From Vicinamibacteria bacterium (GTDB taxonomy: Bacteria; Acidobacteriota; Vicinamibacteria; Marinacidobacterales; Marinacidobacteraceae), in the NCBI GenBank assembly GCA_963668695.2, contig CAXXLQ010000004.1:832001-896000 (forward strand): DNA of 64,000 nucleotides, in the 5' to 3' direction. The translations under genes and the position numbers were made by a program. Under the pieces are notes generated by a model. The model saw only the letters and a program-made list of their open reading frames with translations, was not told the origin of the DNA and searched no databases. Positions 1,035-57,193 of this stretch are shown here, piece after piece (position 1 is the stretch's first letter; each line of letters opens with the position of its first letter).

Positions 1035-1085
1035 AGGGGACCGCCGGCCAGTCCTCCCGGTGGGGGCCTTCAGGTCGGCATCGCG
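1035..1085. repeat. REP-like palindrome (AGGGACCGCCGG-Nn-CCGGCATCGC family) carrying the 19-nt insert
   Basis: aggggaccgccgg[ccagtcctcccggtggggg]ccttcaggtcggcatcgc; related copies near 5389, 20672, 24186, 29155, 38155, 40866, 40985 and 49254. Confidence 0.75.
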
Positions 1086-1112
1086 GCCGGAGGCCGCGAA
1101 ACGCACTGCGCC

Positions 1113-1349
1113 ATCGCACCCAGTTCACGACAGCAGATCCGGCTATCGCACCCAGTTCACGACAGCAGGGGCCTTCAGGTCGGCACCCAGTTCACGACAG
1201 CAGATCCGGTTATCGCACCCAGTTCACGACAGCAGATCCGGTTATCGCACCCAGTTCACGACAGCGATCCGGTTATCGCACCCAGTTCACGACAGATCCG
1301 GTTATCGCACCCAGTTCACGACAGCAGATCCGGTTATCGCACCCAGTTC
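1113..1349. repeat. Tandem repeat, ~8 copies of a 32-bp unit
   Basis: Unit ATCGCACCCAGTTCACGACAGCAGATCCGGTT; copies at ~1113, 1145, 1183, 1212, 1244, 1275, 1304 and 1336, with 1-3 nt deletions in some; no unique spacers. Confidence 0.95.
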
Positions 1350-1553
1350 GATCCAACCGGCGCACCTATCGCCCCCAGCTCCGATCAAGCTCGATCCACT
1401 CGAATCCTGTATGAACGCGAGCTGCCGGCAACCGAATCGCCATTACAATCGTAAGTGACACTGTAATATCGACTTAGGTCGACAATGCTCTTCCGATTCG
1501 ATGCCAAAATCGTTGAGAATTCCCGCGCCGCTCCCCGGTAGGCTCGCCTCCCT

Positions 1554-2590
1554 TTGCCGATTCTCGACCTCCGCTCCGAGGAACCTGTTTCCGCACCGAC
1601 GGATCACGACCCGCTGGACGAGACCCCGCCGGGCCTCGACGCGATCCGCGCCTGGATCCGGAAACCGCGCCCGTGGCTGCGAGGCGTGCGGCTCTGGGTG
1701 CGCTGGATCCTTTCCGGGTTTGCAGAGACATACCGGTTCCTGAAACAGCACGCGGGGCCAGCCGCGAAGAAACTGCGCCGGATCGCGACCAGGGAGAGCG
1801 GGCGGGCCGGGCGGCGACCCTGGCCGGCAACGCGGGCCGCGAGATCGGCGGAGCGGTTACCCGAGGAGCGCGCGCCCTCCGGACGTCCGACGGACGGATC
1901 GGAAGCGCCGGCAGGAAGCTCGGGAAACTGGGCGGCGCGGTGCGTCGGTTCGGCGGGCAGTTGAACGAGGGTGGAAACGCGGCCGCCGAAATTTTCGCTG
2001 GGGTGGGCCGCCTGACCCGCGCTCTTCGCGGGAACGACCAAACCGGGCTCGGCCTGCTGGATCCACCCGAGGAACCGGAGCCGAAGGCACCGCGACCGGC
2101 CCCACGAACCCTCCGGCAATCCCCGGCGCGGAGGCTGCCGAGGCCGGCGAAGGAGGAGCAGACACCGCGCCCGCCTGCCCCGGAAGCCGCCCCGGAGGCA
2201 CTCGACGAGGCTCCCGCGCCGTCCCCGAGCCTCAGCCCCCCGCCCACCGCCGCTCCTGTGTGGGAAGAGCGTCTGGTCGGACTGCCCCGGGTCTTCATTC
2301 CCCAGATCAAAGCGCTCGGGGAACGGCCCCGAAGCGATGTTCTCTGGCCCCTCATCTTCGAAATCTGCGGCTGGCGCGAATGGACCACCCCCGCCGAACT
2401 CGCGCGCTGGTTCTCCATGCACCACCGAAGCCTCGTCAAGCGCCACCTCGGCCCGATGACGAAGGAAGGCCTGCTGGAGCGCCGCTTTCCGGATCGCCCG
2501 AACAGTCCCAGGCAGGCGTACCGCGCCCGCCGGGACGGTGCGCCGACCGCGGATTCGGAGAAATCCCGAACCCCAGGCTCCGGCCCGTAG
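1554..2590 (+). pseudogene. Frameshifted protein: Gly/Ala-rich helical N-region, Pro-rich linker, C-terminal winged-HTH (Fic-like C-terminal domain)
   Basis: ORFs 1554..1964 and 1673..2590 join as KKLRRIA|DQGERAG if 1 nt is restored at ~1786; C-terminal TPAELARW...GLLERRFPDRPNSPRQAYR resembles the wHTH tail of Fic/RecG-like proteins. Confidence 0.6.
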
Positions 2591-2636
2591 CCGTCGCCCG
2601 AAATCTTTGGCAACCCTGAGCGTGGTGACCTGACAG

Positions 2637-3572
2637 GTGCCGCTGCTTCCGTCCCGTCACCTCGACACGGTGGTCCTCTTCGAGGGGTATCGGGAAGGAC
2701 GGTTCCGCTACGCGGCAACCGGTTTCTTCTGCCGCCATCGCTTCGGTGGGGAGGAGCCGCACGAAGAACTGTTCCTGGTGACCAGCGCGCGGAACGTCCG
2801 GGAGGCACTTGGCCACACCCTCCTGGTGAGTCGCCGCCGCCGAACCCAGCGCGTCCTGTTGAACGACGCGACCGGCCAGGGCGGCCTCGGGCGGGGGCCC
2901 TGGATTTCCGACCCCGAAAGCGACCTCGCGGCACTACCGCTGAACCCGGAGCACCTCGCTGCGACGAAGTTGCGCTTCCGAGCCCTGGGCACCAGCGCCA
3001 GTGCTCTGACCATGGCCGCGATGAGGAAACGACGCATCGGCGAGGGCGACGACGTGGTGGTGATTGGATTCGCACCCGAGTTGGCGGGCTTGCACCCGGT
3101 GCCGCTGGTCCGCCGGGGGATCGTTGCGCGCATTCAGGACTGCTACCGCGGACTGTCCAAAACGTTCTTGGTGGAGGCCACCACGTTTGCCGGCAATCGG
3201 GGCAGCCCCGTGGTGATGAAGCCGGACCGCGGGGCGGATGACCGGGCCTGGAACGATCCCGCAGGAAAGTTGATCGGGATCGTCAGCGAATCCGTGCCGA
3301 ATCCGTTGGGACCGCTCGAACACGGGACCGATGGCCGAACGGTGCTGATCCAGGTGAACACCGGACTCGTCCGCGTGGTTCCGGTGGACGCGCTCCTGGA
3401 TCTTCTGGAGAAGGCCGATCCCCAACGCCACGCCTCACCCCAAGGCGCCTCGTTCCGACGCACCCCTCCCACTGACGCGCTTCTGGATCTTCTGGAGAAG
3501 GCCGATCCCCAACGTCACGCCTCACCCCAAGGCGCCTCGTCCCGACGCACCCCTCCCACTACCGAAGACTGA
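2637..3572 (+). CDS. Trypsin-like (PA clan) peptidase homologue, probably inactive
   Basis: ATGFF, LFLVTSARNV (no His), SDLAAL, TTFAGNRGSPV (Ser replaced by Arg); paralogous to the next gene. Confidence 0.8.
   Translation: MPLLPSRHLDTVVLFEGYREGRFRYAATGFFCRHRFGGEEPHEELFLVTSARNVREALGHTLLVSRRRRTQRVLLNDATGQGGLGRGPWISDPESDLAALPLNPEHLAATKLRFRALGTSASALTMAAMRKRRIGEGDDVVVIGFAPELAGLHPVPLVRRGIVARIQDCYRGLSKTFLVEATTFAGNRGSPVVMKPDRGADDRAWNDPAGKLIGIVSESVPNPLGPLEHGTDGRTVLIQVNTGLVRVVPVDALLDLLEKADPQRHASPQGASFRRTPPTDALLDLLEKADPQRHASPQGASSRRTPPTTED
3387..3560 (+). repeat. 87-bp in-frame tandem duplication at the C-terminus of the inactive protease
   Basis: DALLDLLEKADPQRHASPQGAS(F/S)RRTPPT twice; copies start at 3387 and 3474. 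Confidence 0.95.
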
Positions 3573-3577
3573 ACGTC

Positions 3578-4429
3578 GTGCCGCGGACTTGCCGGCTCTA
3601 CCTCGACACGGTGGTCACCCTCCGAGGCGTCGAGCAGAACGGCCGAAGTCGCTGGATAGGTACCGGTTTCTTCTGCCGGGCTTTCCGGTCGTACTGGCCA
3701 ACGCGCGAACTGCTCTTCCTGGTCACGAATGCCCATGTGGTCTGCCAGGGCTTCGAGCACATCAACGTCGTGGTCCCTCCCCGGGAGGGAGATCGGGCGG
3801 TGACGTACTCGGTGACCGGCAAGATCGGTCTTGGACCGAGCAAGTGGGAGGTGGACGGGCACCATGACCTCGCCGTCTTGCTACTGGACCCCGAGCACCT
3901 CCCGGAAGACGAAATTCGCGACCGCACCTTCCAGGTCGAGGCCGACGCGCTCACGATCCGGGAGCTCCGGCGGCTCCGGATCGGAGAGGGCGATGAGGCG
4001 CTTCTCGTCGGATTCGCCTTTCCCCAACACGACCCCGTCGAGGACTACCCGGCAGTCCGCCTGGCGACGATCGTCCGCGTGCCGAAGCGGGCGAGCTGCC
4101 GGAGATCCTTCCTGCTGGAGGGCACCACGTTTCCCGGAAACAGCGGTAGCCCGGTCATCGTGAGGCCGGGCCGGGACGCTTGCGGCGACGACCGTGCCGA
4201 CGGTAGCGGGAAGTTGATCGGCATCATCCGCGCGGGGGGAAACGCGGCGACGACGATCCGATCCGACAAGCAAGGCGTTCCCGTTGAAGTCCGCGAGGGC
4301 GTGGGACAGATCCACATCGTCCCGGTGGATGTGCTGCGACGCAGCATCAACGTGATCATCCGCAACGTTTTGCTCGCAGAAACCTTCGGCCCGATGTTCC
4401 GGAAGGTGAGAAGATGGGTGAAATCATGA
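3578..4429 (+). CDS. Trypsin-like serine peptidase with intact triad
   Basis: FLVTNAHVV (His), HDLAVL (Asp), TTFPGNSGSPV (Ser); no signal peptide. Confidence 0.88.
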   Translation: MPRTCRLYLDTVVTLRGVEQNGRSRWIGTGFFCRAFRSYWPTRELLFLVTNAHVVCQGFEHINVVVPPREGDRAVTYSVTGKIGLGPSKWEVDGHHDLAVLLLDPEHLPEDEIRDRTFQVEADALTIRELRRLRIGEGDEALLVGFAFPQHDPVEDYPAVRLATIVRVPKRASCRRSFLLEGTTFPGNSGSPVIVRPGRDACGDDRADGSGKLIGIIRAGGNAATTIRSDKQGVPVEVREGVGQIHIVPVDVLRRSINVIIRNVLLAETFGPMFRKVRRWVKS

Positions 4430-4662
4430 CGCGCTCAGTCCAAGCCGTCCTCGCCGAGGCCCTGCGGCTCGATCTCCAGGCTCGCGCCGAATTGGCGGCA
4501 GAGTTGCTCGGAAGTATCGAGGGGCCGTCCGATCCGGGCGCTGGGGCGGCCTGGGACGCTGAAGTCAGACGCCGCGTCGCGGCGATCGAAGCTGGAACCG
4601 AGAATCTTGAGCCTTGGGAGGAAGTGCGGCGCCGGATTGAGCGCGAGATCCTCAACCGGTGA
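4426..4662 (+). CDS. Addiction module antitoxin (TIGR02574-like)
   Basis: EALRLDLQARAELAAELLGSI...AWDAEVRRR...PWEEV; ATGA overlap with the protease stop and GTGA overlap with the toxin. Confidence 0.88.
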   Translation: MTRSVQAVLAEALRLDLQARAELAAELLGSIEGPSDPGAGAAWDAEVRRRVAAIEAGTENLEPWEEVRRRIEREILNR

Positions 4663-4954
4663 AGGTCCGCATCGCGGCATCCGCAACCGCGGAGTTCGGT
4701 GAGGCCGTCAGGTGGTACGAGGACACAAGGCAGGGGCTGGGAGCCGCTTTCCTCGATGCCGTCAGTGCGGTCCTTTCCCGCATTGAAGAACACCCCAACA
4801 TCGGGGCGCCGTTCGCGGAGGGGCATCCCATCCGTAGAGTCCTGGTCGTCGGTTTCCCTACCAGGTCGTCCATGCGGTCAGGCCCACGGAACTAGTCGTG
4901 GTGGAGATCGCGCACCTGAGGCGGCGACCGAAGTACTGGGTGGGTCGGGACTAG
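4659..4954 (+). pseudogene. ParE/RelE-family toxin, frameshifted
   Basis: AEFGEAVRWYE...RRVLVVGFP, then a 1-nt deletion at ~4858; the other frame continues YQVVHAVRPTELVVVEIAHLRRRPKYWVGRD* to 4954. Confidence 0.85.
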
Positions 4955-5030
4955 TCCTCGCCCCGGTCGTCTCTCGCTCAGCGCCCCGCGTCGCTCAGGT
5001 CGCGGAACGGAAGACGACACGATCGGGGCC

Positions 5031-5250
5031 TAGCAGCCTGTGGATAAAGTGGTGTGAGCGCCGAGAGCGGCCAGTCCTCCCGGTGGGGGCGAGGCGCCCG
5101 GCTGACAAGGCGCGCGAGGGAGGAGCCCCCACCGGGAGAACTGGCCCGTGTATTTCGACCGAAGCGCAACGATGAGCGACGCGAAGCGGAGTGTTTCAGC
5201 CGGGATGCATCGCCGGTCGAACGCCGCATGACTTTGTCCACAGGCTGCTA
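5031..5250 (+). mobile_element. MITE (subfamily I ends) with two 19-nt inserts
   Basis: TAGCAGCCTGTGGATAAAGT...ACTTTGTCCACAGGCTGCTA terminal inverted repeats; no ORF; 9 related loci in the window. Confidence 0.9.
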
Positions 5251-5279
5251 GCGATCCCTGTTGAGGATGCGACCCTCAT

Positions 5280-5318
5280 TGCTGCCGTTTCGGTAGTCGT
5301 TCTACCGAAACGGCAGCA
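5280..5318. promoter_or_regulatory. Perfect 17-bp inverted repeat (operator or terminator hairpin)
   Basis: TGCTGCCGTTTCGGTAG-tcgtt-CTACCGAAACGGCAGCA. Confidence 0.5.
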
Positions 5319-5453
5319 GAAATGGCTTTTGTGATTCAGCAAGCGCCTTGCTCATCGTTCACCCCAAGTTCTACTGGCCTCCGGCGGAATGCCGGTCTGA
5401 AGACCGGCGGTCCCTTGCCAGGCCCCCGCAGCGGCAGCTCGCCGCGCAGTCCC

Positions 5454-6422: not shown

Positions 6423-6531
6423 GAGCAGCCTCCCTCGCCCCACCGAGCAGACCATCGGACGCGGGCGAACGGATCGTACCGTTCCCTGAGAGTGGCCAAG
6501 ATGACACAATGGCGTAATGGACGGACCGACA

Positions 6532-9999: not shown

Positions 10000-10403
10000 T
10001 AACAGCCGGTGGTGGAACCCGCGTGAGCGCCGAGGCCGGGGAGGCGCCCGGCTGACAAGGCGCGTGAGGGAGGAGCCCCCACCGGGAGAACTGGCCCGGG
10101 TGTATTTCGACCGAAACGCAACGATGAGCGGCGCGCAGCGACGCGGGCAACAGCCTGTGGGGGAACCCGGGTGAGCGACGAGGTCGGTGAGGCGCCCGGC
10201 TGGCGAGGCGCGTGAGGGAGGAATACCGGGTGTATTTCGACCGAAACGCAACGACGAGCGGCGCGCAGCGACGCGGTTCAGCCGGGATGGATCGCCGGCC
10301 GAACGCCGCCCGGGTTTCCTTACAGGCTGTTTGGCCGGGATGGATCGCCGGCCGAGCCCCCACCGGGAGAACTGGGCCGCGTGGGTTTCGCTACCGGTTG
10401 TTA
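10000..10403 (+). mobile_element. Composite MITE (subfamily II ends): two left arms and two right arms
   Basis: TAACAGCCGGTGGTGGAACCC start, second CAGCCTGTGG at ~10151, right ends at ~10330 and ~10403; abuts the TAA of the downstream gene. Confidence 0.85.
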
Positions 10404-20648: not shown

Positions 20649-20791
20649 GCCACGCGCCGTGGCGCGAAGGTCAGGGACCGCCGGCCAGTTCTCCCGGTGG
20701 GGGCTTCACACCGGCATCGCCCGCCGGAGGCGGGCGAAACGCGGGATGCTCACCACTCCAATGTCGCCTCCCGCGAAGGCGGTGAGAGAGA

Positions 20792-22483: not shown

Positions 22484-22720
22484 CAGCCTGTGGATAAAGT
22501 GGTGTGAGCGCCGAGAACGGCCAGTCCTCCCGGTGGGGGCGAGGCGCCCGGCTGACAAGGCGCGCGAGGGAGGAGCCCCCACCGGGAGAACTGGCCCGAG
22601 TGTATTTCGACCGAAGCGCAACGATGAGCGACGCGAAGCGGAGTGTTTCAGCCGGGATGCATCGCCGGTCGAGCCCCCACCGGGAGAACTGGGCCGCATG
22701 ACTTTGTCCACAGGCTGTTG
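22481..22720 (+). mobile_element. MITE (subfamily I) with three 19-nt inserts, at a TAA stop
   Basis: TAACAGCCTGTGGATAAAGT...ACTTTGTCCACAGGCTGTTG. Confidence 0.9.
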
Positions 22721-22843
22721 AGCGCCCACCGCGGCCCCCGGTTCCTCGAGGAAATCTGCAGCGCGCGCCGGGCCGAGTCCCTCCAGATAGCCCTCCAGTT
22801 CCTCCCGGCTCAAGCCGGAATCCGGCGCGCAGTCCGGGATCAA
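22721..22843 (-). repeat. Diverged copy of the 3' end of gene 24238..24621
   Basis: APDSGLSREELEGYLEGLGPARAADFLEE versus APDSGWSREDLEGYLEGLGPARAADFLEE. Confidence 0.9.
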
Positions 22844-22960: not shown

Positions 22961-23773
22961 ATGCGACATACCACCACTGCACTGGACCCCGTAGTCCCCG
23001 GCCCGCGCCGCCGCCTCGTCGCCGTTCTACGCGAGGCCGGCGACGTCGTTCGCATCGACGACGTCGTGAAGGCGCTTGATATCTCCCGTGCGGACGCCGC
23101 CAAACTGCTCTCGCGGTGGGTGAAGCAGGCGTGGCTCCGGCGGGTCGGTCGCGGCGCCTACCTTCCGGCCTCACTCACCACGCTCGGCAACGTCCACGTT
23201 TTGGACGATCCGTGGATCCTGGTGCCGGCACTGTTCGATCCTGCCTACATCGGCGGTCGCACCGCCGCCGAGCACTGGGATCTCACCAAGCAGATCTTCC
23301 GGGACATTGTGGTCATGACGACGCAGACCGTCCGGGCGAAAACGCAGCATCGGCACGGCGCCATTTTGAGCCTCACCCACATCAGCCCGCAGAAAATCTT
23401 CGGCACCACGACCGTGTGGCGCGGCAGGAGCAGGATCGCCGTCTCCGACGTTCACCGGACCATTGTGGACATCGTGGCGGATCCGGCACTCGGTGGGGGA
23501 ATCCAACAGGTAGCGGATTGCCTGTCGGTGTATCTGAAGTCGAGCGCCCGTAACGACGACCTCCTTCTCGACTACGCGGCACGGCTCGGGAACGGTGCGA
23601 TCTTCAAGCGGCTGGGCTTTCTGGCCGAACGCGATCCGGCGGGTTCGGCGCTCGTAACACCCTGTCGAGAGCGGCTCACGATGGGGTACGCCCGGCTCGA
23701 CTCCGCACTCGAAACTCCACGCCTCATCACTCGGTGGCGGCTGTGGGTCCCTAGCAGCCTGTGGATAAAGTGA
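22961..23773 (+). CDS. Type IV TA AbiEi-family antitoxin/regulator; last codons replaced by a MITE
   Basis: N-terminal wHTH (KLLSRWVKQAWLRRVGRGAY), YIGGRTAAEHWDLT, SDVHRTIVD, GNGAIFKRLGFL; the native tail KSWTRGTDP* lies beyond the MITE, ending at 24091. Confidence 0.88.
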   Translation: MRHTTTALDPVVPGPRRRLVAVLREAGDVVRIDDVVKALDISRADAAKLLSRWVKQAWLRRVGRGAYLPASLTTLGNVHVLDDPWILVPALFDPAYIGGRTAAEHWDLTKQIFRDIVVMTTQTVRAKTQHRHGAILSLTHISPQKIFGTTTVWRGRSRIAVSDVHRTIVDIVADPALGGGIQQVADCLSVYLKSSARNDDLLLDYAARLGNGAIFKRLGFLAERDPAGSALVTPCRERLTMGYARLDSALETPRLITRWRLWVPSSLWIK

Positions 23774-24062
23774 CGTGAGCACCGAGGCCGGTGAGGCGCC
23801 CGGCTGACAAGGCGCGCGAGGGAGGAGCCCCCACCGGGAGAACTGGCCCGAGTGTATTTCGACCGATGTGCAACGCAGAGCGTCGCGAAGCGCCAGTTCT
23901 CCCGGTGGGGGGGCGGTTCAGCCGGGATGCATCGCCGGTCGCTTCCGGAGCGGGGCGCCAGCACCGCGGAGACCCCGGAGCGGAAGGGACGGGGGGCGGG
24001 GCTACCCGACCCCCATCCCTTCCGGCTCGGGAATGCCGCGTGACTTTGTCCACGGGCTGCTA
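23752..24062 (+). mobile_element. MITE in the abiEi 3' end, with two 19-nt inserts and a ~90-nt hairpin insert
   Basis: cccTA[GCAGCCTG...GGGCTGC]TAagagc; removing the element and one TA restores V-P-K-S-W. Confidence 0.92.
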
Positions 24063-24087
24063 AGAGCTGGACTCGCGGGACGGACCC

Positions 24088-24711: not shown

Positions 24712-24915
24712 TCAGCAGCCGGTGAACAAAGTCACGCGGTATTCGCCCGGCGATGCATCCCGGCTGAAACGCGCTGCTTCGCATCGCTCATCGTTGCGCT
24801 TCGGTCGAAATACACTCGGGCCAGTTCTCCCGGTGGGGGCTCCTCCCTCGCGCGCCTTGTCAGCCGGGCGCCTCACCGGCCTCGGTACTCACGTCACTTT
24901 ATCCACAGGCTGCTA
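24712..24915 (-). mobile_element. MITE (subfamily I), reverse orientation, one 19-nt insert
   Basis: CAGCAGCCGGTGAACAAAGT...ACTTTATCCACAGGCTGCTA. Confidence 0.9.
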
Positions 24916-28348: not shown

Positions 28349-29155
28349 ATGCGGGACGGCGCGGCCTCCCGGGTGGTCTACCTGGCGTTTTGCGTCTTCG
28401 TCTTCGTCTTCCTGGTCGCCCCGATCCTGGTGATCATTCCGCTCAGCTTCAACGCCGAGCCCTATTTCACCTTCACGGAGGGCATGCTCCGGCTGGACCC
28501 CGACGCCTGGTCCCTCCGCTGGTACGAGGCTCTGGTGGAAGACGCCCGCTGGAGCCGGGCGCTCGCCAACAGCCTGGGGATCGGGTTCGCCGCCGCCCTG
28601 CTGGCGACGGTGCTGGGAACCGTCGCGGCGCTCGGGCTCTCGAGCCCGGCGATGCCCGCGCGCCGCCTCGTGACCGGGATCCTGATCTCGCCGATGGTGA
28701 TCCCGGTAATCATCGCGGCGGCGGGGATGTTCTTCTTCTACTCGGACCTCCGCCTCACCCAGTCGCACCTGGGGCTGATCCTCGCCCACGCGGCGCTCGG
28801 CACCCCGTTCGTGGTGATCACGGTGACCGCGACACTTTCCGGATTCGACCGCAACCTGGTCCGCGCCTCCCAGAGCCTCGGTGCGGGCCCCCTCACCACC
28901 TTTCGCCGGGTGCAGTTGCCGCTGATCGCGCCGGGGGTCCTTTCGGGGGCCCTCTTCGCCTTCGCCGCCTCGTTCGACGAGGTGGTCGTGGTGCTTTTCA
29001 TGGGCGGGCTGAACCAGCGGACCATTCCCCGCCAGATGTGGTCGGGGATCCGCGAGGAGATCAGCCCCACCATCCTGGCGGCGGCGACCTTCCTGATCGC
29101 GTTCGCGCTGCTCTTCCTGTTCGCGGTGGAGCGGCTCCGCAGCCGGACTCGCTAG
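28349..29155 (+). CDS. PotC-like ABC permease
   Basis: SLRWY, ISPMVIPVII, ASQSLGA, FAASFDEVVV. Confidence 0.9.
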   Translation: MRDGAASRVVYLAFCVFVFVFLVAPILVIIPLSFNAEPYFTFTEGMLRLDPDAWSLRWYEALVEDARWSRALANSLGIGFAAALLATVLGTVAALGLSSPAMPARRLVTGILISPMVIPVIIAAAGMFFFYSDLRLTQSHLGLILAHAALGTPFVVITVTATLSGFDRNLVRASQSLGAGPLTTFRRVQLPLIAPGVLSGALFAFAASFDEVVVVLFMGGLNQRTIPRQMWSGIREEISPTILAAATFLIAFALLFLFAVERLRSRTR

Positions 29156-29243
29156 GAGCGCCGGCCTTCAGGCCGGCATCGCGGCCCACCGGCTAGGAAC
29201 GCTGGCCAGTTCTCCCGGTGGGGGCCTTCAGGCCGGCATCGCT
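29155..29243. repeat. Two tandem REP palindromes, one empty and one with the 19-nt insert
   Basis: ggagcgccgg|ccttcaggccggcatcgc next to ggaacgctgg[ccagttctcccggtggggg]ccttcaggccggcatcgc. Confidence 0.85.
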
Positions 29244-31171: not shown

Positions 31172-32162
31172 CTATGCCGCCTGGTTGCGGATGCCGCTGC
31201 GGCGGCTCGCCCGGTTCAACCGCTGCGCGAAATAACGGACGAATACGCTGTTCTCTGGATAAGCGCCGGGATCAGCCCAGAACGCTCCGAGACGCCCTAC
31301 AAGCCCGCAGATCCAATCGGCGGCCTGCACGGTCTGCTAGCCAGCCTGTGGTGAAACCCAGGCGGCGTTCGAGCGGCGATGCATCCCGCCTGAACCGCCC
31401 CCCCACCGGGAGAACTGGCGCTTTGCGGCGCTCTGCGTTGCGTTTCGGTCGAAATACACCCGGGCCAGTTCTCCCGGTGGGGGCTCCTCCCTCACGCGCC
31501 TTGTCAGCCGGACCCCCACCGGGAGAACTGGGCCTCGCCCCCACCGGGAGAACTGGCCGCTCTCGGCGCTCACCCGGGTTCCACCACAGGCTGCTAGCGG
31601 TGGCTTTCCGCCTGGAGCGGGGGCTCGATGAGCTGACGGCGGGGCTCGTCTCCCCCATACATCCTTTGGGACGCCGCTGTGAGCAGGGCTGAACGCTGGT
31701 CATGCTCATCAAGAACGAGAAGAAAGTTGCGCGTAGGTTCACTTCCCTCGGTGCAGAATTCGTCCAGACGCTTGATCGCCTCGACGAAAACCGCGGTGTA
31801 GAGCGCGTTGGCGTTGTGTTGATCCGGTGAGTGGGTCTTCTTGGTCCCAACATAGAACACGAAACCGCCGATCGTGGTGATCTTGTTCAGGAAGCGGTTC
31901 GTGAACGTCCTGAGTTCGCGGTAGCGGCCTACGTTGGTCACCGTGTAGAGGCTCGAGCCCTTCTTTTCCCAAACTGCTGCATCTCGAATGACAGAAGTTC
32001 AGCCTTTCGCTTGAAGAACCACGTTCCAAACCCGCGCACTTCGCCTGCTGGCAGTACGAGGCCGGCGAGTCCAAACACCGGGCTGTCATTGTGTTTCGGG
32101 TCCGAGCGGCCCACGTAAGGACCGATATGCCCGAACTCATCCAGATACGCGAGATACGTCAC
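31172..32162 (-). pseudogene. DUF3800-family (RNase H-like) protein, frameshifted and split by a MITE
   Basis: YLAYLDEFG...PVFGLAG; frameshift at ~31975; VLDEH...IEPPLQAESHR [MITE] QTVQAADWICGLVGR...QAA*; the YxDE and QxAD motifs are typical of DUF3800. Confidence 0.85.
31338..31596 (-). mobile_element. MITE (subfamily II) with four 19-nt inserts, inside the DUF3800 gene
   Basis: CTAG on both sides (31337-31340 and 31594-31597); the gene continues across it. Confidence 0.93.
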
Positions 32163-46538: not shown

Positions 46539-47355
46539 TAGCTGCCTGTGGTGAAACCCACGTGAGCGCCGAGAGCGGGGAGGCGCCCGGCTGACAAGGC
46601 GCGTGAGGGAGGAATACCGGGTGTATTTCGACCGAAACGCAACGCAGAGCGCCGCAAAGCGGCGCGCTTCAGCCGGTGGTGGAACCCGCGTGAGCGCCGA
46701 GGTTGGCCAGTCCTCCCGGTGGGGGCGAGGCGCCCGGCTGACAAGGCGCGTGAGGGAGGAGCCCCCACCGGGAGAACTGGCCCGGGCGTATTCCGACCGA
46801 AACGCAACGATGAGCGGCGCGCAGCGACGCGGTGAACAGCCGGTGGTGGAACCCAGGTGAGCGCCGAGGCCGGCCAGTTCTCCCGGTGGGGGCGAGGCGC
46901 CCGGCTGACAAGGCGCGTGAGGGAGGAGCCCCCACCGGGAGAACTGGCCCGGGTGTATTCCGACCGAAACGCAACGATGAGCGGCGCGCAGCGACGCGGT
47001 TCAGCCGGGATGGATCGCCGGCCGAGCCCCCACCGGGAGAACTGGGCCGCGTGGGTTTCACTGCCGGCTGTCTGGCCGGGATGGATCGCCGGCCGAGCCC
47101 CCACCGGGAGAACTGGGCCGCGTGGGTTTCATCACCGGCTGTCTGGCCGGGATGGATCGCCGGCCGAGCCCCCACCGGGAGAACTGGGCCGCGTGGGTTT
47201 CACTGCCGGCTGTTTGGCCGGGATGCATCGCCGCTCGTTTCCGGAGCGGGGCGCAAGCACCGCGTAGACCCCGGAGCGGAAGGGACGGGGGGCGGGACCA
47301 CCCGACCCCCATCCCTTCTGGCTCGGGAACGCCGCGTGGGTTTTGCCACAGGCTG
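46539..47355 (+). mobile_element. Nested MITE stack: 3 left arms, then 4 right arms (three as 71-bp tandem units)
   Basis: Left arms at ~46539, 46670 and 46837; 19-mers at 47027, 47098 and 47169 spaced by 71 nt; the last arm carries the ~90-nt hairpin insert. Confidence 0.88.
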
Positions 47356-49248: not shown

Positions 49249-49253
49249 GGCGC

Positions 49254-49440
49254 GGGAGCGCCGGCCAGTTCCCCCGGTGGGGGCCTTCAGACCGGCATCG
49301 CGGTCCAGAGGACCGCGCAACCCCGAACTGCGGACCTGCGCCAACGGACAGCAGGTAAGGGACCGCCGGCTTCCGGCCGGCATCGCCGGCTTCCGGCCGG
49401 CATCGTTGGCCGCAGGCCGGTATCGCTGGCCGCCGGCCGG
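49254..49440. repeat. REP palindrome cluster between convergent genes
   Basis: gccggcttccggccggcatc repeated; the first copy carries the 19-mer variant CCAGTTCCCCCGGTGGGGG. Confidence 0.8.
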
Positions 49441-51083: not shown

Positions 51084-51268
51084 TAGCAGCCGGTGGACAA
51101 AGTCACGCGGCGTTCGAGCGGCTATCCATCCCGGCTGAACCGCGCCGCTTCGCGTCGCTCATCGTTGCGCTTCGGTCGAAATACACTCGGTATTCCTCCC
51201 TCGCGCGCCTTGTCAGCCGGGCGCCTCACCGCTCTCGGCGCTCACGCCACTTTATCCACAGGCTGCTA
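51084..51268 (-). mobile_element. MITE, insert-free (empty) form, ~185 bp
   Basis: TAGCAGCCGGTGGACAAAGT...ACTTTATCCACAGGCTGCTA; lacks the 19-mer at all five sites; abuts the TAG of the GWxTD gene. Confidence 0.92.
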
Positions 51269-53449
51269 GGCCGCGGGGGTCGAAACCGCCATGGCTTCTC
51301 CATGAGACGGCCCGAATCGGACGCCCTCATCACGGATCCGATTCCCTTGCCCGGGGACGCTCTTGAGTTGTCGCAAATGCTCCCGGGCGTCGTCCTGATC
51401 GGGCAGGAGCTCCAGTGAGCGCTCCAGATACTCGATGGCGCCGGGCGCGTTGCCCAGTTCGGCCTCGCAGGCAGCGAGAAGGTTGAGGACCTGGGGCTCG
51501 GCCCCGCGGAGTCGAAGCGCCTGCTCGAGAAACTCCACGGCTCGCGCGGGCTCACCCATTCGCTGGTACGCCCCGCCGAGGACCACGGCGACGTCGTAGC
51601 TCTCCGGGTTTTCCTGGTATATCGGCTCGAGAAGGCTGATGGCGCCGGAGGCGTCGCCCTGATCGAGGTAGATGCGGGCGAGCGGCACCCGGGCATCCGT
51701 CAGGTCCGGTTTCGCCTCCAGCGCTCGCCCGTACAGCTCCATCGCTCGCGCCCGATCTCCTTTCTCGTCGTACTGATTTCCGAGGGTGGCGAGCACGAAG
51801 GCCGGATGTGCGAAGTCATTCGTGCCGTACATCGCCCAGGGACGCGGAACCGCGTCGCGCGGACTCACGTCGAAATCGGAGACCTGGCTCGCCGCGATGT
51901 CTCCCGACCCATCGACGAGGTCGACTCGAAGCCGATACCGGCCGCCAACCGATGCCGGCAGATCCCGTATCTCGAAGACGGGACGAGTACGGTACTCCGA
52001 GAGCGGCAACGATTCGGACACGAGCGGCACGTCGCTGTCACCCGCGGGAAGTATCCGGAAACGGAGCTCGTGATCCTCGGACGCCCCCGTGACGGGAACG
52101 TGGACGCGCAGCGGCTCTCCGATCGCGTAGACGCGTTTTGCATTGGGATGAAGAACCATCCCGGCGACGACGTAGCTCCGATATCCGGGGCTCCGATATC
52201 CGGGGCTCCGATATCCGGGCCCGGACTCCGGGCCAACCGGTTCGGCGTTGTAGAGCAGCACGGGCTCTCCCAGGAGCGGCTCGCCCTCCCGCCATTCCGG
52301 CGCCCGCAGCTCGCCGTCGAACGTCGTGTAGTCGCTCCGCGCCCGATTCTTGAACACGATCCGCAACCGGTAGTCCCCCGCTACGAGCGGGAACATGCTC
52401 CGGTACGCAAAGGGGCGGCGCCCCACCTGCTGGAGCTCTGAGGGCGCCAGCTCCAGGTATTCGACTTTGGAGAGGGTATGCACAACCTCCTCGCTCGGCG
52501 AACTGACCTCGGCATGGAGCTCGAAAGCCGTGTAGACACGGTTCTCCTCCCGCATCAGGGTGAGATGCTGAGGGTCGATCTCGATGCTGAAATGAACGAG
52601 GCTCTCCCCCGCGGGGCCGGGGAGAACGGCCACCGCCACCGAGCTCGCCATGTAGTTGAACATGTACTCCGCTTCCACCATCCCCCGTGCGCTCCTCGCG
52701 GCGTCGATGTAGCTCGTGTCGAGTCGCCGGTAAGGAGACTCGTGAATGTTCGCCAGGACCTGACCCGAATCCAGGGCCCCGGCCTCGAGCCCCGTCGAGA
52801 ACGAATATCCGCCCTGATCGGCTCGCATCGACATCGCGGCGTTGGCCAGCTCGGGGGAGATCTCCTGCAGGCGGGTATAGGCCTCCGCGAGGTCTTCGGC
52901 GAGTAGGCCCATGGAAAGGATCAGGCGTTCCGGCCGGTCGATGAAGTGGTTGTAGAGCCGTAACGCTCCGGCGCCTCCGGGCTGAAAGAAGAGCAGGTAG
53001 AACGGCGGCAGGCCCGCCATCCGATCGCCGTCATAGAACCACACCTCGGCGGGATAGATTCCGCCCACGTTCCGGAAATTGGACCGATCCCTCGGCTCGC
53101 CCAGGATGATGTACATGCGTCCCCGATCGGTCTTCCAGCCGGGAATGGCCGCTTCGCCGCCGAGCCTTCGATTCGCGTAGTCGATCCGGCGGTAGTGCTC
53201 TTCCCGGAACTCGTTGATCTCGGTGAGGGGGTCGGGGTCGCGCCGGCGCCAAAAGGCCGCGACAAAAGCGTCCCGTTCTTCCATCGCCTCGAGCTGGAGG
53301 AAGAACTCCTTCTCGCGCTCGCTGATGATGTAGACGACCTCGTCTTCGAGCCACTCCCGAAGCCTCTCCGGTAACTGCTCGGTCTGCTCGCCAGCCGCGG
53401 CGCCGCAGAGCCCGAGGGCGAGCGAGGCAAGGACGACGAAGCGAAGCAT
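51266..53449 (-). CDS. GWxTD-domain protein with C-terminal TPRs
   Basis: FWRRRDP...NEFREEHYRR...GWKTDRGRMYIILGEP; several TPRs. Confidence 0.92.
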   Translation of the reverse strand: MLRFVVLASLALGLCGAAAGEQTEQLPERLREWLEDEVVYIISEREKEFFLQLEAMEERDAFVAAFWRRRDPDPLTEINEFREEHYRRIDYANRRLGGEAAIPGWKTDRGRMYIILGEPRDRSNFRNVGGIYPAEVWFYDGDRMAGLPPFYLLFFQPGGAGALRLYNHFIDRPERLILSMGLLAEDLAEAYTRLQEISPELANAAMSMRADQGGYSFSTGLEAGALDSGQVLANIHESPYRRLDTSYIDAARSARGMVEAEYMFNYMASSVAVAVLPGPAGESLVHFSIEIDPQHLTLMREENRVYTAFELHAEVSSPSEEVVHTLSKVEYLELAPSELQQVGRRPFAYRSMFPLVAGDYRLRIVFKNRARSDYTTFDGELRAPEWREGEPLLGEPVLLYNAEPVGPESGPGYRSPGYRSPGYRSYVVAGMVLHPNAKRVYAIGEPLRVHVPVTGASEDHELRFRILPAGDSDVPLVSESLPLSEYRTRPVFEIRDLPASVGGRYRLRVDLVDGSGDIAASQVSDFDVSPRDAVPRPWAMYGTNDFAHPAFVLATLGNQYDEKGDRARAMELYGRALEAKPDLTDARVPLARIYLDQGDASGAISLLEPIYQENPESYDVAVVLGGAYQRMGEPARAVEFLEQALRLRGAEPQVLNLLAACEAELGNAPGAIEYLERSLELLPDQDDAREHLRQLKSVPGQGNRIRDEGVRFGPSHGEAMAVSTPAA
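52176..52220. repeat. 15-bp x3 in-frame tandem repeat
   Basis: ctccgatatccgggg three times, encoding GPGYR-SPGYR-SPGYR-S. Confidence 0.9.
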
Positions 53450-53613
53450 GGAAGCTTCCACGCCTCATCTGAACATCGCCGCACCAGCGAAGTCAACTCC
53501 GATGACCCCGGATCCCACGGCCGCGCACCGCGGCCCCCGCGCGGTTGGACCGGCGATCCAAGGAGTTGGTTATCGGTGGCCGATCCCTGGCGGATCGCAG
53601 CGCCTCTCGCGGT

Positions 53614-53627
53614 ATATCTATAGATAT
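53614..53627. promoter_or_regulatory. Perfect 14-bp AT-rich palindrome in a divergent promoter region
   Basis: ATATCTATAGATAT between the GWxTD and TonB receptor genes. Confidence 0.5.
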
Positions 53628-53862
53628 TTCAACGAGATACGAGCGCTCTCCGATGGACGCGTATCGGAATGATATTTGCGTATTTTCATAGGAGCCGAAG
53701 TGGGCGCGTCTCCAGACGCCCGCGCAATCGGCCGCCTTTCGGACTCATAGAGGAGGCGCCCATGCAAGACCTCGCTGTCGAGTTCAAGTCGTTGACGGTG
53801 GACGGATCTGTCGCCGGATCCCTGCCCTCACGCCTCCCACCGCAAAAAGGAGGGCTTGCCAA

Positions 53863-56832
53863 ATGGTGAGTTTCATTTTTCGCACCCTTATCGCCAGTAC
53901 GATCCTGCTCGGCACGGCCGCTCTGGCCCTTGCCCAGGGACAAGGAACTCTTACCGGGAGAATCCTCGATCCGGAAGGATTGGCTCTCCCCGGAGTCACT
54001 GTCACCGCCGAGAGCGAGACCATGCTGGGAACGCGCTCGTCGGTGACGGACGGGGTGGGCAACTACCGCCTCCCGGCCCTCACGCCCGGCATGTACGCAC
54101 TGACGGCGCAACTCTCGGGTTTTGCCCCGCTCCGGCGGGAGAACGTCCAGGTCCGGGCCGGTTCGAACTTCCGTGTCGACCTGCAGATGGCTCTCGGAAG
54201 CGTCGAAGAGACCATCACGGTCACGGCGGAAACCCCCATGATCGAGATGAAGAAACCGGGGCAGGTGATCACCATCGACGGGGATTTCCAGCGCGACGTA
54301 CCCGTCCAGGCGAGGAAGAACTGGACCGACTTCGTCGAGCTCACGCCCGGGGTGAACTCCCGCAACTGGGACGACGGCAGCGGTCGCATGACGTTCTTCG
54401 GACACGGAACCGAGCACTTCCATCACGTGATGCAGCTCGAGGGGCAGATCGCGAGCGCCTACGACGACAGCCAGTTGCCCTATATCCAGTTGACCACCGA
54501 AGCGATCGCCGATGCCGAGATCAAGACGGTGGGCGCCTCCGCCTCCGACCCGATGGGGAACGGTCTCATCATCAACATCATCACCAAGAGCGGTGGTAAC
54601 ACCTTCGACGGCTCCGTCGCGAGCAGCTACCAGCCCATCGATTGGAACAGCGACAACACCGCCGGCAAGGTCAGCTACAACGATGATGTCGAGCGCTTCT
54701 TCAGCCAGAACGAGCTTCCCTCATCGGCGGGGACCCCGACGCTCCAGGAGGTGAAGCAGTTCGATTACTCCGTCGGCGGGCCCATCGCCCGGGACCGGGT
54801 GTGGTTCTTTCATACCGGCCGGCTGGCGAGGAACTCCGCCGAGATCAGCCGTACCGGTCGCGAGGTGGAGATTCTCGAACAGTTCGCGCCGGGGGACGAC
54901 CTCTTCCCCAACGTCTTCGAAGGTTTCTGGCCCTACACAAAGCTGACGGCGCAACTCAGCCCGAACCACAATTTCTCCGGCTATCACCAATTCGACGTCG
55001 CCCACCTCTCGAGCGCCCGCGAGTACCACACGGTGAACTACAACTTCAACAAGACCGGCGGCCACCTCCTCGGTGGAAAAGTGACCTCGGTGTGGAGCCC
55101 AACCCTGACCTCCGATATCGCCGTGTCCTACAACAACAAGCGCTCCGAGACGTCCATCGGCACCATCGAAGCGCTGGGACTGTCGGGACCGCGGATCACG
55201 ATCCACCAGGAAGCGCTCCCCTCGTCCGGTGTCCTGGTCGGAAGCGGCCGGATCCTGGAGGTCGGAAACCGCACAACCTACGGCGAAGATCCCTCCTCCA
55301 TGCTCGTCATCCGCGCGGATTTCACGCTCTACCAAGGCAGTCACGAGATCCAGACGGGAATCTTCGCCGCGCCTCGGAACCGCCGCACGAGCTACACGGA
55401 ATACCTGAACGGGGGCCACAACCAGGAAGACCACTACCTGATCGACCCGAGCGACGCCGGGAGCGGACACCTGCCGTTCCGCCGGCGAATCTACGACACG
55501 ACGGAGATCAAGAGCCGGGAAGCCCGGGACCGGAACATCGCCGTTTACCTTCAGGACGCCTGGAGCCCCACCGACCGCCTCAACATCACTGCTGGTCTCC
55601 GGGTGGATTTCGTGAATCGCTTCGACGCCATCAACAGCATCACCCGGATGAGCAGCACGGAGATCGGGCCGCGGCTGGGCTTGTCCTGGTCCCTGACCGA
55701 GGACTCCCGGAACGTGGTCCGCGCCAGCTACTCCAGGGTGCACGAGCAAGTGAACGGCCGCGACGCAGTGACGAGCTTCGGTTCCTCCGCCGGCGTCGGG
55801 TATCGGGACGAGTACGACGTGGATTTTGACGGTGTCTTCGAGACCGTCGTAGCGACGCCGCCGCGCGCCGGCGACGTTGCCAACTACGAGTTCGATCCCA
55901 CCTTGCACCAGCCGGTCACCGACGAGTTCGTGGCCGGTTACCGCCGTCAGTTCGAGGGGGAGATGGCGCTGGACGTGGCCTATGTCTATCGCAACATCAG
56001 CGACGGCTACGCCACCACCGACGTGAACGGGATCTATCCCGATGGACCCTTCCAGCCTTTCGGGGGATACGGGCTCATCGATCCCAACCGGGGCCAGCTC
56101 GATCAGTTGACGAACAACACCTGGATGGACCTCCGCTACCACGCCCTGGAGGTCGTCGTGGCCAAGCGCATGTCCAACAACTGGCAGGCCATGGGAAGCG
56201 TCAGCAGGCAGTGGCACTCTCAGGCGGGGACGTGGAACCCGACGGATCGCGCCGGATTCATTCAACCGGACGCGTTCGCGAACACGAAGTGCCTCTGGAT
56301 GCCGCGCGGGCTCCGCGACGACAACAGCTACCAGCTCGGCTCGAATTCCACCTACTGCCCCACCTGGCGGGACTACTCGCTTCGCTTCGGCGCCACCTAT
56401 CAGGCGCCGTGGGACATGCTCCTGACGGGCTCCTACACCCACCAGGCGGGTCCCTGGTCCGGCGCCATCTTCACGCGTATCGATGAGCCGGACCCGACGT
56501 TCGGGCCCGCGAGGGTGACGCTCGCGAACGGCACCACGCAGCCGAACCCGCTGGCGGACCGGACCCGCTTCCTGTTCGACACGAGGGACGAGGGGCAGGT
56601 CAAGCTGGGAGACACCAAGCGCCTCTCGGTCAAGGTCGGCAAGGTCATCGACATCATGGGCCCGAATCAGAACATCGAGCTCTCGCTCCAGGTCTTCAAC
56701 CTCTTCAACTTGGGAGACTTCCAGCAGTACACCTACAACGGGGGGAATGCGGTGTTCAACCCGAACTTCCTGCAGCCTCGGAACCGGCAAGCGGGACGCG
56801 GCGTCCAGTTCAACGCCATGTTCCGCTTCTAG
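53863..56832 (+). CDS. TonB-dependent receptor (Oar-like, carboxypeptidase-regulatory N-domain)
   Basis: GLALPGVTVT, ETITVTAETP, INIITKSGGN, YLQDAW, PRLG, C-terminal FRF. Confidence 0.92.
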   Translation: MVSFIFRTLIASTILLGTAALALAQGQGTLTGRILDPEGLALPGVTVTAESETMLGTRSSVTDGVGNYRLPALTPGMYALTAQLSGFAPLRRENVQVRAGSNFRVDLQMALGSVEETITVTAETPMIEMKKPGQVITIDGDFQRDVPVQARKNWTDFVELTPGVNSRNWDDGSGRMTFFGHGTEHFHHVMQLEGQIASAYDDSQLPYIQLTTEAIADAEIKTVGASASDPMGNGLIINIITKSGGNTFDGSVASSYQPIDWNSDNTAGKVSYNDDVERFFSQNELPSSAGTPTLQEVKQFDYSVGGPIARDRVWFFHTGRLARNSAEISRTGREVEILEQFAPGDDLFPNVFEGFWPYTKLTAQLSPNHNFSGYHQFDVAHLSSAREYHTVNYNFNKTGGHLLGGKVTSVWSPTLTSDIAVSYNNKRSETSIGTIEALGLSGPRITIHQEALPSSGVLVGSGRILEVGNRTTYGEDPSSMLVIRADFTLYQGSHEIQTGIFAAPRNRRTSYTEYLNGGHNQEDHYLIDPSDAGSGHLPFRRRIYDTTEIKSREARDRNIAVYLQDAWSPTDRLNITAGLRVDFVNRFDAINSITRMSSTEIGPRLGLSWSLTEDSRNVVRASYSRVHEQVNGRDAVTSFGSSAGVGYRDEYDVDFDGVFETVVATPPRAGDVANYEFDPTLHQPVTDEFVAGYRRQFEGEMALDVAYVYRNISDGYATTDVNGIYPDGPFQPFGGYGLIDPNRGQLDQLTNNTWMDLRYHALEVVVAKRMSNNWQAMGSVSRQWHSQAGTWNPTDRAGFIQPDAFANTKCLWMPRGLRDDNSYQLGSNSTYCPTWRDYSLRFGATYQAPWDMLLTGSYTHQAGPWSGAIFTRIDEPDPTFGPARVTLANGTTQPNPLADRTRFLFDTRDEGQVKLGDTKRLSVKVGKVIDIMGPNQNIELSLQVFNLFNLGDFQQYTYNGGNAVFNPNFLQPRNRQAGRGVQFNAMFRF

Positions 56833-56856
56833 CTCGCACACGATCTCGCGTACATC

Positions 56857-56903
56857 GGGGGGCTCGCACGCCGTCACCGGACGGCGTGCGGGCTCTCTTT
56901 TTT
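56857..56903 (+). terminator. Intrinsic terminator
   Basis: CTCGCACGCCGTC-accg-GACGGCGTGCGGG followed by a T-tract. Confidence 0.85.
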
Positions 56904-56934
56904 CGGCCGGGTTGCGGAGTCTTCCGACCGGTTG

Positions 56935-57193
56935 TGAACAGCCTGTAATGAAACCCACGCGGCCCAGTTCTCCCGGTGGGGGCTCGGCCGGCGATCCATC
57001 CCGGCTGAACTGCGTCGCTTCGCGCCGCTCATCGTTGCGTTTCGGTCGGAATACACCCGGGCCAGCTCTCCCGGTGGGGGCTCCTCCCTCACGCGCCTTG
57101 TCAGCCGGACCCCCACCGGGAGAACTGGGCCTCGCCCCCACCGGGAGAACTGGCCGGCCTCGGCGCTCACCCGGGTTCCACCACAGGCTGTTA
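56935..57193 (-). mobile_element. MITE (subfamily II) with four 19-nt inserts
   Basis: ACAGCCTGTAATGAAACCC...GGGTTCCACCACAGGCTGTTA. Confidence 0.9.

Follow-up and report, generated by a model that had tools for sequence, protein, structure and literature searches.

The closest described counterparts of the element treated here are the small dispersed repeats (SDRs) of cyanobacteria. Elhai et al. reportedly presented SDR1-8 of the Nostocaceae in 2008, in Genome Res, as dispersed repeats of ~21-27 nucleotides (nt) in high copy number, which are said to reside in minitransposons as well as in copies of themselves and to have been proposed as the smallest mobile elements. A common fold backed by compensatory changes has reportedly been found for SDR4, 5, and 6, movement via RNA is said to have been proposed for SDRs, and we know of no enzyme assigned to them. 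Here, we analyzed a sequence of similar size, the 19-mer CCAGTTCTCCCGGTGGGGG (hereafter the unit), in a 64-kb stretch of the genome of a Vicinamibacteria bacterium (C4:832001-896000; the whole of this stretch is hereafter called the window). At a probability of roughly three in four, we consider the 19-mer to be the core of a very small non-autonomous element that is moved in trans and shows SDR-like behavior; it is among the smallest mobile-looking DNA elements seen. With good confidence, the unit is an independent insert rather than a constant component of the repeats that host it, because it was found inserted in a gene, breaks the symmetry of repetitive extragenic palindromes (REPs), differs between orthologous miniature inverted-repeat transposable elements (MITEs), is polyphyletic among MITE copies, and occupies different sites, including copies of itself, in other genera. 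The original prediction of an ultra-short sequence inserted on its own, with the cyanobacterial SDRs as nearest analogue, is well supported by these five lines of evidence.

Insertion of the unit at independent sites

Within the window, the 19-mer was matched 29 times on both strands with up to two mismatches (23 exact copies, six with one mismatch); dinucleotide shuffles of the window (n = 100) gave a mean of 0 matches. The genome, designated G000 (4.10 Mb in four contigs, 67.5% G+C, scored as 91.7% complete with a contamination of 9.34), contains 1,613 copies at the same threshold, i.e., ~1 per 2.5 kb, of which 1,123 are exact. Chief variants are the exchange of the last G for C (161 copies) and the form CCAGTCC, referred to as the TC variant (149 copies). 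Alignment of 1,612 copies revealed an information content of 1.4-2.6 bits at the 19 core positions and mostly <0.5 bits within 4 nt outside; as the information falls off just outside these 19 positions, the unit ends are sharp. Less information was carried by positions -3 to -1 (two G followed by G or C) and by position +19 (C in 1,411 copies). The cassette can be written as CCAGTTCTCCCGGTGGGG(G)(C), 18-20 nt with a core of 19 nt. It begins with CCAG, finishes with GGGGG(C), and has neither dyad symmetry nor terminal inverted repeats (TIRs), its ends CCAGTT and GGGGGC not being inverted repeats. Folding of the unit with 3-4 nt of flank gave -2.8 kcal/mol (z = +0.5), and 134 out of 200 shuffles folded as well or better.

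One unit lies in frame in an AcrB/AcrD/AcrF-family gene at C4:394434 (Pfam E-value 6.6e-241, residues 21-1059 aligned), and an identical gene copy with the unit is present on contig C1 of G000. The insert is carried by G000 in both copies and by G001; at this position, an 18-nt gap is seen in the remaining 14 genomes of the genus as well as in the outgroup G026, adding up to 15 empty rows out of 18 aligned. The empty site reads GAGCCCG-CG-CGGGA (G008) or similar, the site in G000 GAGCCCG-G-CCCCCACCGGGAGAACTGG-CGGGA. The direction of change at this gene site is unambiguously a gain, and the site is without any homologous filled donor. Coding signal on both sides was recorded for two of the 1,612 units of G000, representing this one gene, duplicated. 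Micro-inserts of this kind are able to lengthen a gene by six codons while leaving it intact. The AcrB-family segments at C1:38077-41277 and C4:393139-396339 are identical over all 701 bases compared, insert included. Instead of being a plasmid, the 144-kb contig C1 could represent a strain variant or a segment that was duplicated.

A second type of target is provided by REPs with a 3' arm of the form ..TCAGACCGGC or ..GAAGACCGGC (AGACCGGC). Their empty 5' arm reads CCGGTCT in 113 cases and CCGGCCT in eight, and in the former 113 it pairs perfectly with the 3' arm. The unit follows the GG of the 5' arm in 76 REPs, in 65 of which CCT comes next, breaking a T-A pair. Since the palindrome is broken in the filled REPs, the unit represents an insert interrupting otherwise perfect REP palindromes. 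Within the window, this arrangement is represented by the copies at 20685-20703 (+ strand) and 29206-29224 (+), the latter being a plain 19-nt insertion at GG|CC with an empty REP adjoining at about 29158-29186, exactly as the original prediction had described the pair at 29155-29243. Likewise in a REP 5' arm are a TC variant at 1048-1066 (+), read by eye as ...gaccgc CGG|unit|C cttcaggtcggc and assigned to the REP 3' arm by rule, and the variant CCAGTTCCCCC... at 49265-49283 (+), for which the corresponding REP of locus L007 is empty in a by-eye alignment. The last copy had been singled out as perfecting the stem of a mini-hairpin. Its sequence CCAGTTCCCCCGGTGGGGG is as stated; the mini-hairpin of the unit is not above chance (z = +0.5), and the stem-perfecting variant occurs in two copies only in the whole G000 genome.

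The predominant host repeat, MITE-A, is a TA-flanked element of 185 bp with TIRs and ~650 core copies in G000. A comparison with genome G041, for which 400 kb were fetched and 140 kb were syntenic at ~96% identity in coding blocks, yielded two orthologous MITE-A copies. The first (C4 about 938,070-938,320) is empty at sites a and f and carries a single unit at site d in G000; in G041 it is filled at a and f and carries a double d. In the second (window 22488-22725), site e is filled in both genomes by a TC variant (22521-22539, +); sites c (22576-22594, -) and a (22674-22692, -) are filled in G000 only, the G041 ortholog reading GGAGGA-ATA-CCGAG and GTCGA-AC-GCCGC, respectively. Such comparison of sister-genome loci, which had been suggested together with the original prediction, thereby revealed a difference in unit state at five out of 12 site comparisons of the two MITEs, the bodies of which differ by one substitution in total. 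Polymorphic bases only 1-2 nt away from site c are unaltered between the orthologs, which speaks against ordinary conversion tracts. The two orthologous bodies are near-identical between G000 and G041 (loci L093-L112), and the adjoining coding DNA differs by several percent. The MITE bodies look far more conserved than neutral DNA, with selection, concerted evolution, and recent exchange all being candidates.

The original prediction had also proposed a tree of MITE copies with the inserts masked. Out of 717 loci, 333 were near full length, and all five states were readable in 146, 187 having been dropped due to a missing anchor. The tree was calculated with FastTree on 113 columns with unit sites masked, and label shuffles served as null. 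Among the 146 copies, the five sites show 23 state combinations. State a (22 filled) required 20 changes compared with a shuffle mean of 20.9 and minimum of 18, state b (20 filled) 16 changes (mean 19.1, minimum 16), state c (39 filled) 29 changes (34.8 and 30), state d (20 filled) 20 changes (19.2 and 15), and state e (33 filled) 25 changes (30.0 and 26). Control single nucleotide polymorphism (SNP) columns, tested on trees calculated without the respective column, were below every shuffle in 14 out of 14 cases, e.g., with 1 change vs. a shuffle mean of 47.8, 2 vs. 47.8, and 12 vs. 49.5, the weakest being 14 vs. 19.0. Filled states are scattered almost at random on the masked tree and are polyphyletic, whereas the control SNPs cluster.

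At site c, 615 copies could be matched, comprising 296 empty and 301 filled ones as well as 18 of other lengths. Minor alleles amount to a mean of ~0.3% at the 19 core positions vs. ~1.3% at the flanks (common polymorphisms excluded), and flanking-SNP frequencies are equal in filled and empty copies. Excision footprints were considered and rejected, as ~47 MITE columns with a minor allele of at least 12% are spread over the whole length without site-specific signal. Logan contigs of other public runs break at repeats, which makes joints on the MITE level readable but not single units. Contigs of three other DNA studies (X4, X8, and X10) join 24739 to 24890 and 23752 to 24063, thereby skipping the host MITE 24740-24889 with its site-c unit (24821-24839, +) and the host block 23753-24062 with another one (23828-23846, -); a contig of RNA run X15 also joins across the 24740-24889 block. 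MITE-sized blocks hence vary in presence between close populations, suggesting that MITEs have been mobile recently. Contigs from four other studies pile up on unit-bearing repeats, and the depth of RNA run X15 over repeat bins tracks copy number in the same way as in DNA runs, a pattern that carries no information on expression. Among genomes with a coding-DNA identity of 93-96%, the turnover of intergenic regions is complete. In the orthologous intergenic region of G042, an insert of ~1.6 kb with a long reverse-strand frame, probably an insertion sequence (IS) element, takes up the spacer in which the window has a REP array (L008 11,900-13,200).

Extension toward 41 related assemblies including G000, searched with up to one mismatch, revealed the 19-mer in 21 of them. 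All 15 other genomes of the same genus carry it with 7 to 740 copies (1,526 in G000), as do five out of nine genomes from other genera of family f1 (255 copies in G018, 58 in G019, one in G020), i.e., 20 of the 24 relatives of G000 within this family; G017, G021, G022, and G024 are without it. The sister families f2 and f3, represented by 16 genomes, were free of the unit, and no exact match turned up when 150 additional genomes from 60 families of the phylum were searched, resulting in 0 out of 166 genomes outside f1. Among the genomes searched, the unit is found in one family only. Viral contigs contained no exact match, the window gave no Rfam match at gathering thresholds, and a literature search, which did not cover supplementary files, returned neither a paper with the 19-mer or its reverse complement nor a relevant one on Gemmatimonadota MITEs.

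The other genera of the family use other sites. In G019, 20 of 26 sampled units are located at site g (GATGC^AT^CCCGG), which is no major site in G000. Among the units in 20 loci of G018, 13 are nested in another unit after the internal CGG; site f and a REP family distinct from that of G000 also hold units. All six sampled site-a units of G018 (L125, L131, L138, L140, L141, and L144) are the same two-mismatch variant CCGGTTCTCCCGGTAGGGG, which has four copies in G000; other sampled G018 sites mostly hold the canonical unit. These variant units look like an old decayed insertion that was spread with the MITE. MITE homologues of three genera share 69% mean column identity, yet carry a 19/19 identical unit at different sites. 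Taken together with the low share of minor alleles in the core at site c, this gives the units the appearance of being younger than their hosts or under stronger constraint.

Target sites and junctions

Clustering of the flanks resulted in 106 context clusters, about half of them singletons. A rule-based classification covering 1,612 G000 copies assigned 372 copies to MITE site a, 311 to site c, 188 to site e, and 64 to site b. Site d hosts 86 single units and, in tandem arrangement, 151 first and 135 last units; 106 copies fall in REP 5' arms, 36 in REP 3' arms, and 163 in other contexts. In total, 994 of the 1,612 units are bordered by repeated DNA in both directions. Counting copies with identical 10+10 nt flanks in G000, we determined 70 empty and 67 filled cases at site a, 203 and 63 at site b, and 299 and 303 at site c; the d+e region is empty in 230 cases and contains units in 350 (one in 182, two in 124, three in 44). 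The empty MITE-A at 51084-51268 (+), TA-flanked, with TIRs and every site empty, serves as reference for sites a-e and was found as described in the original prediction, whose five pre-insertion sites A, B, C, D, and E are our sites e, d, c, b, and a, and exist in both states in the genome for identical flanks.

Comparison of both states defined the junctions. Site a changes from GGC-GT to GGC-unit-C, site b from GCG-GC to GCG-unit-G, site c from GG-TAT to GGG-unit-C, and site d from GGC-GC to either GGC-unit-T or GGC-(18-mer)n-unit-C. Site e and the REPs change from CGG-N (N being T in REPs) to CGG-unit-C, site f from GAC-GA or GAC-AA to GAC-unit-C, and site g of G019 from TGC-AT to TGC-unit-C. 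Filling adds 19 nt net at e and the REPs, compared with 18 nt at the gene site and at a, b, c, d, f, and g. Thereby, 1-3 target bases are overwritten, and filled compared with empty copies show no target duplication, so that the gain of 18 or 19 nt without duplication predicted for the window was borne out at a, b, c, and d (+18) and at e and the REPs (+19). A G/C-rich junction is the shared target feature, common forms being ...CGG^T, ...GGC^GT, and ...GGG^GT, and GG(S) is found directly 5' of nearly every unit. A pure insertion of 19 or 18 nt was rejected as a general model due to altered target bases at a, c, f, and the gene site; it does fit e, b, the d tandems, and the REP at 29206.

Units also form head-to-tail arrays with an 18-nt period (1,336 single, 140 double, two triple, one of four, and one of five). 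As we read the sequences, a double at site d would correspond to a second cassette replacing the last G and the following T of a single d unit. The TC variant was counted in 48/188 units of site e, 83/135 last units of d tandems, 16/103 of REP 5' arms, 5/36 of REP 3' arms, and 7/373 of site a, i.e., in at least five context classes in all, and it is also found in other genera (G016 and G019). Its occurrence across contexts agrees with either a transfer of units from one context to another by copying or the existence of two templates.

All 29 window copies were matched exactly at the starts given in the original prediction and in both orientations, and none of them had coding signal on both sides in a crude codon-position test, in line with the non-coding location that had been described. 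Besides the copies already mentioned, MITE-A site e is occupied at 5071-5089 (+, TC variant), 31538-31556 (-, 6 nt from a site-d unit), 46707-46725 (+, TC variant), 46874-46892 (+, in the second copy of a 167-nt tandem MITE segment), and 57135-57153 (-). Site-c units are located at 5126-5144 (-, with a left flank shorter by 1 nt and hence classified as "other" by rule), 10076-10094 (-), 31465-31483 (+), 46762-46780 (-), 46929-46947 (-), and 57062-57080 (+, one mismatch, CCAGCTC...). Site b is filled at 23893-23911 (+, with G as +19 base) and 31400-31418 (-), and single site-d units with T as +19 base are found at 31513-31531 (-) and 57110-57128 (-). Site a holds units at 10357-10375 (-, with a AAACCCACGC-type left end), 56964-56982 (+), and in three consecutive repeats at 47027-47045, 47098-47116, and 47169-47187 (all -). 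The latter belong to three tandem 71-nt repeats at 46990-47215, each composed of a MITE left-end segment and a site-a unit, and two tandem 167-nt MITE segments are located just upstream; MITE parts also amplify as local tandem arrays. The inverted unit pair 46707/46762 within one MITE forms a 21-bp stem of -30.6 kcal/mol (z = -3.8).

Alternative origins and candidate mechanisms

Several observations weigh against the reading of the unit as a very small element moved in trans. Site c departs from the common junction rule in that 21 bases take the place of three (TAT). Which base follows the unit depends on the site: T was recorded for 80 of the 86 single d units, G for 63 of the 64 b units, and C elsewhere; consequently, most copies of each site class derive from few founding events. 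Much of the filled/empty scatter among MITE copies could be short-patch conversion between paralogs and not fresh insertion, and states c and e retain a weak tree signal, each with one change fewer than the lowest shuffle. G042 is without both orthologous MITEs, leaving the change there unpolarized, so that gain and loss are polarized only at the gene site and the REPs. Furthermore, the profiles searched (RVT_1, Y1, Y2, and Piwi) provided no candidate for an enzyme or template.

The site-specific junction base (T at single d, G at b) is also what would be expected if the unit were an ancestral module of a few composite repeats resembling bacterial interspersed mosaic elements (BIMEs), old alleles of which are shuffled by host transposition and ectopic conversion without any insertion of their own. 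That 994 units are embedded in repeated DNA on both sides, that the named context classes hold 1,449 of the 1,612 units, and that flanking SNPs are equally frequent in filled and empty site-c copies, as recombination would give, point in the same direction. Nevertheless, we regard this origin as unlikely, considering the insertion into a gene that is unique and conserved and for which 15 orthologous rows are empty, the perfect REP palindromes that are broken, and the orthologous MITEs that changed unit state while keeping markers 1-2 nt away. Self-nesting and the different sites in other genera, as well as the 106 context clusters with their many singletons, are equally difficult to reconcile with it.

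Comparably improbable is a selected functional motif, e.g., a binding site for a host protein or RNA or an uptake-signal-like sequence, which purifying selection or a drive would maintain in each copy and for which mobility would be secondary. Perfect conservation across genera while the hosts diverge, a density of ~1 copy per 2.5 kb, the confinement to one family, and the 21-bp hairpins made by inverted pairs (z = -3.8) would suit such a function. However, copies appear as clean 18 or 19-nt indels and not by point mutation, genomes of a single genus hold anywhere from 7 to 1,526 of them, which is hard to square with an essential motif, and a degenerate variant was kept at six out of six sampled site-a positions of G018, indicating that copies are not purged. 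Only two of 1,612 copies are coding, unlike uptake sequences, and the unit has no dyad symmetry, no significant fold, and no strand or replichore bias. In this respect, strand usage in G000 is equal, plus and minus counts being similar in all 20 chromosome bins (skew extremes at 1.10 and 3.07 Mb); a chromosome-polar motif of the Chi or FtsK-orienting polar sequence (KOPS) type was rejected, as there is no orientation switch at origin or terminus. The original prediction had offered the spread of a binding site on MITEs by gene conversion as one option. The insertions found in the gene, in REPs, and within other units cannot be put down to such conversion, although copying from repeat to repeat probably adds copies, given that the junction base is site-specific.

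Its other option, a mechanism based on HUH or REP-associated tyrosine transposases (RAYTs) or templated by a reverse transcriptase (RT), found no support in G000, where Y1_Tnp, Y2_Tnp, and RVT_1 had no match. Movement by a classical HUH transposase (RAYT, IS200-like, or Y2) or RT would agree with the missing target duplication, the preference for hairpin-forming repeats and a fixed short target, and the 18-nt-period tandems after a G run, which suit repeated copying of a template. Yet Y1_Tnp (PF01797) is unmatched not only in G000 (1,526 copies; two candidates scored) but also in G004 (740), G018 (255), and G019 (58), and the unit is devoid of a REP-like hairpin or a GTAG/CGTC head. RVT_1 (PF00078) yielded 0 first-look candidates in G000 in a profile search that detects recognizable RTs only, and Y2_Tnp was found in 0 of 25 genomes of family f1 vs. 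16 of 16 of the unit-free families f2 and f3. We therefore consider this route very unlikely, even though the absence of the enzyme is not proven by a genome that is 91.7% complete. The accompanying claim that the unit targets structured DNA holds only in part: one target is ordinary coding DNA, the targets have in common a G/C-rich junction (often GG^T or GGC^GT), and the mini-hairpin of the unit itself is not significant. An origin as assembly artefact (adapter, barcode, or polishing error) can practically be dismissed: no support for it was found, the contamination of 9.34 and the duplicated C1 segment being the sole flags, and it is refuted by 21 of 41 independently assembled relatives with varying copy number and contexts, by contigs of other studies on unit-bearing repeats, and by the in-frame gene insert in two genomes.

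The transposon repertoires differ sharply between the families. The IS91-like HUH profile Y2_Tnp occurs in all genomes of f2 (including G033, which is flagged as unpublished) and f3, which are without the unit, and some f3 genomes have 76-81 Y1_Tnp copies. Piwi was detected in none of the 41 genomes. REP hairpins are the usual target of the IS110 family, one element of which is located in G000 inside a REP hairpin (C4 about 482,110-483,870, L120, with a 428-aa frame). A link between IS110 and the unit was rejected, two REP-borne units lying 100-200 bp upstream without further connection. TnpB, with one match below the family cut-off, was discarded as well. DDE_3 (IS630-like) gave four matches and is a plausible mover of the TA-flanked MITE, not of the unit.

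For a very small element moved in trans, the following scheme can be proposed. New sites would be seeded rarely by templated patch insertion, in which, as a tentative suggestion, a nick or break at the target would undergo extension or fill-in along a short template whose ends are fixed, the candidates being a unit copy already present, a small RNA, or a small DNA. Afterwards, most of the 1,613 copies would have been produced by two routes, namely by riding on MITE and REP amplification and, probably, by homology-assisted copying over very short distances, in which the filled state is passed on among homologous repeats. The enzyme would not be a recognizable RVT_1 reverse transcriptase, Y1/Y2 HUH transposase, or Argonaute. 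It is conceivable, but in our estimation rather doubtful, that a hitherto undescribed RT- and HUH-independent machinery places a fixed oligonucleotide of 18-20 nt in G-rich junctions wherever they lie in the genome, coding DNA included, thereby overwriting 1-3 bases. If true, such a machinery would amount to a naturally occurring DNA writer using a short, conserved template of its own. The ~1,600 copies would then be the trace it has left, and constraint on this template or on its recognition would be behind the identity of the 19-mer throughout the family.

Comparison with known small repeats

Among the known categories, REPs are imperfect palindromes of 20-40 nt, and RAYT is a Y1 HUH gene. 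A conserved GTAG or CGTC head has been described for REPs (PMC3733652). The unit resembles REPs, BIMEs, and the system of REP-based hairpin elements and RAYTs (REPIN-RAYT) in being short, intergenic, very abundant, and part of mosaic arrays, with REPs acting as its hosts here. In contrast, it is non-palindromic, lacks a GTAG or CGTC head, and has no RAYT in G000; it inserts into REPs and is not one itself. Nesting is also known from MITEs such as Correia, Nezha, and Stowaway-like elements. The unit shares with them that it is non-autonomous, abundant, and nested, and its host MITE-A is a typical TA-flanked TIR element of strain-variable presence. However, it has no TIRs or target duplication, replaces target bases, and is 5-10 times shorter than any MITE.

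In-frame insertion into genes is tolerated for Rickettsia palindromic elements, which are palindromic and ~100-150 bp in length. The unit is tolerated in frame as well, although only two of 1,612 copies are coding, accounting for one duplicated gene. Templated insertions during break repair (template switching, theta-mediated end joining) are mostly eukaryotic and vary in length and sequence. Those events and the unit have in common a templated insert of ~20 nt, a one-sided microhomology, here GG(S), a loss of few bases, and no duplication, but the unit recurs ~1,600 times, and across genera, as one and the same cassette whose ends are fixed. DNA uptake sequences (DUS), also known as uptake signal sequences (USS), arise by point mutation, are common in genes, and are recognized by the uptake machinery, while copies of the unit arise as 18 or 19-nt indels and are found in coding DNA in two of 1,612 cases.

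The SDRs thereby stand closest. Both are ~20 nt long, the unit, with a cassette of 18-21 nt around its core, being slightly shorter than the range reported for SDRs, both occur in high copy number and diverse contexts within one coherent lineage, and both are nested in minitransposons, other repeats, and themselves, which in case of the unit comprises the MITE sites a-f, REP arms, tandems, and a gene. Set beside these reported SDR features, the unit stems from another phylum, and no sequence similarity is claimed. It has no significant fold, whereas SDR4, 5, and 6 are said to share a hairpin, and no RT gene was detected in G000, whereas an RNA route has reportedly been proposed for SDRs. Further differences are a defined rule for its junctions, by which 1-3 nt are overwritten and 18 or 19 nt are gained net, and a polarized in-frame gene insert. 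The unit is outside the SDR family by lineage and fails the defining features of REPs and RAYT systems, MITEs, uptake sequences, and polar motifs. No SDR was found outside the Nostocaceae (PMC5861425). The unit represents a second, unrelated case of ~20-nt mobile DNA beside the cyanobacterial SDRs, for which a single lineage had been reported. It shows that composite repeat families of stable appearance can be remodeled by inserts below the size handled by annotation tools. With complete genomes of one genus holding 7-1,526 copies, a junction rule, a polarized gene insert, orthologous repeats set apart by their unit content only, and the negative enzyme profiles, it makes the question of how such short sequences move testable.

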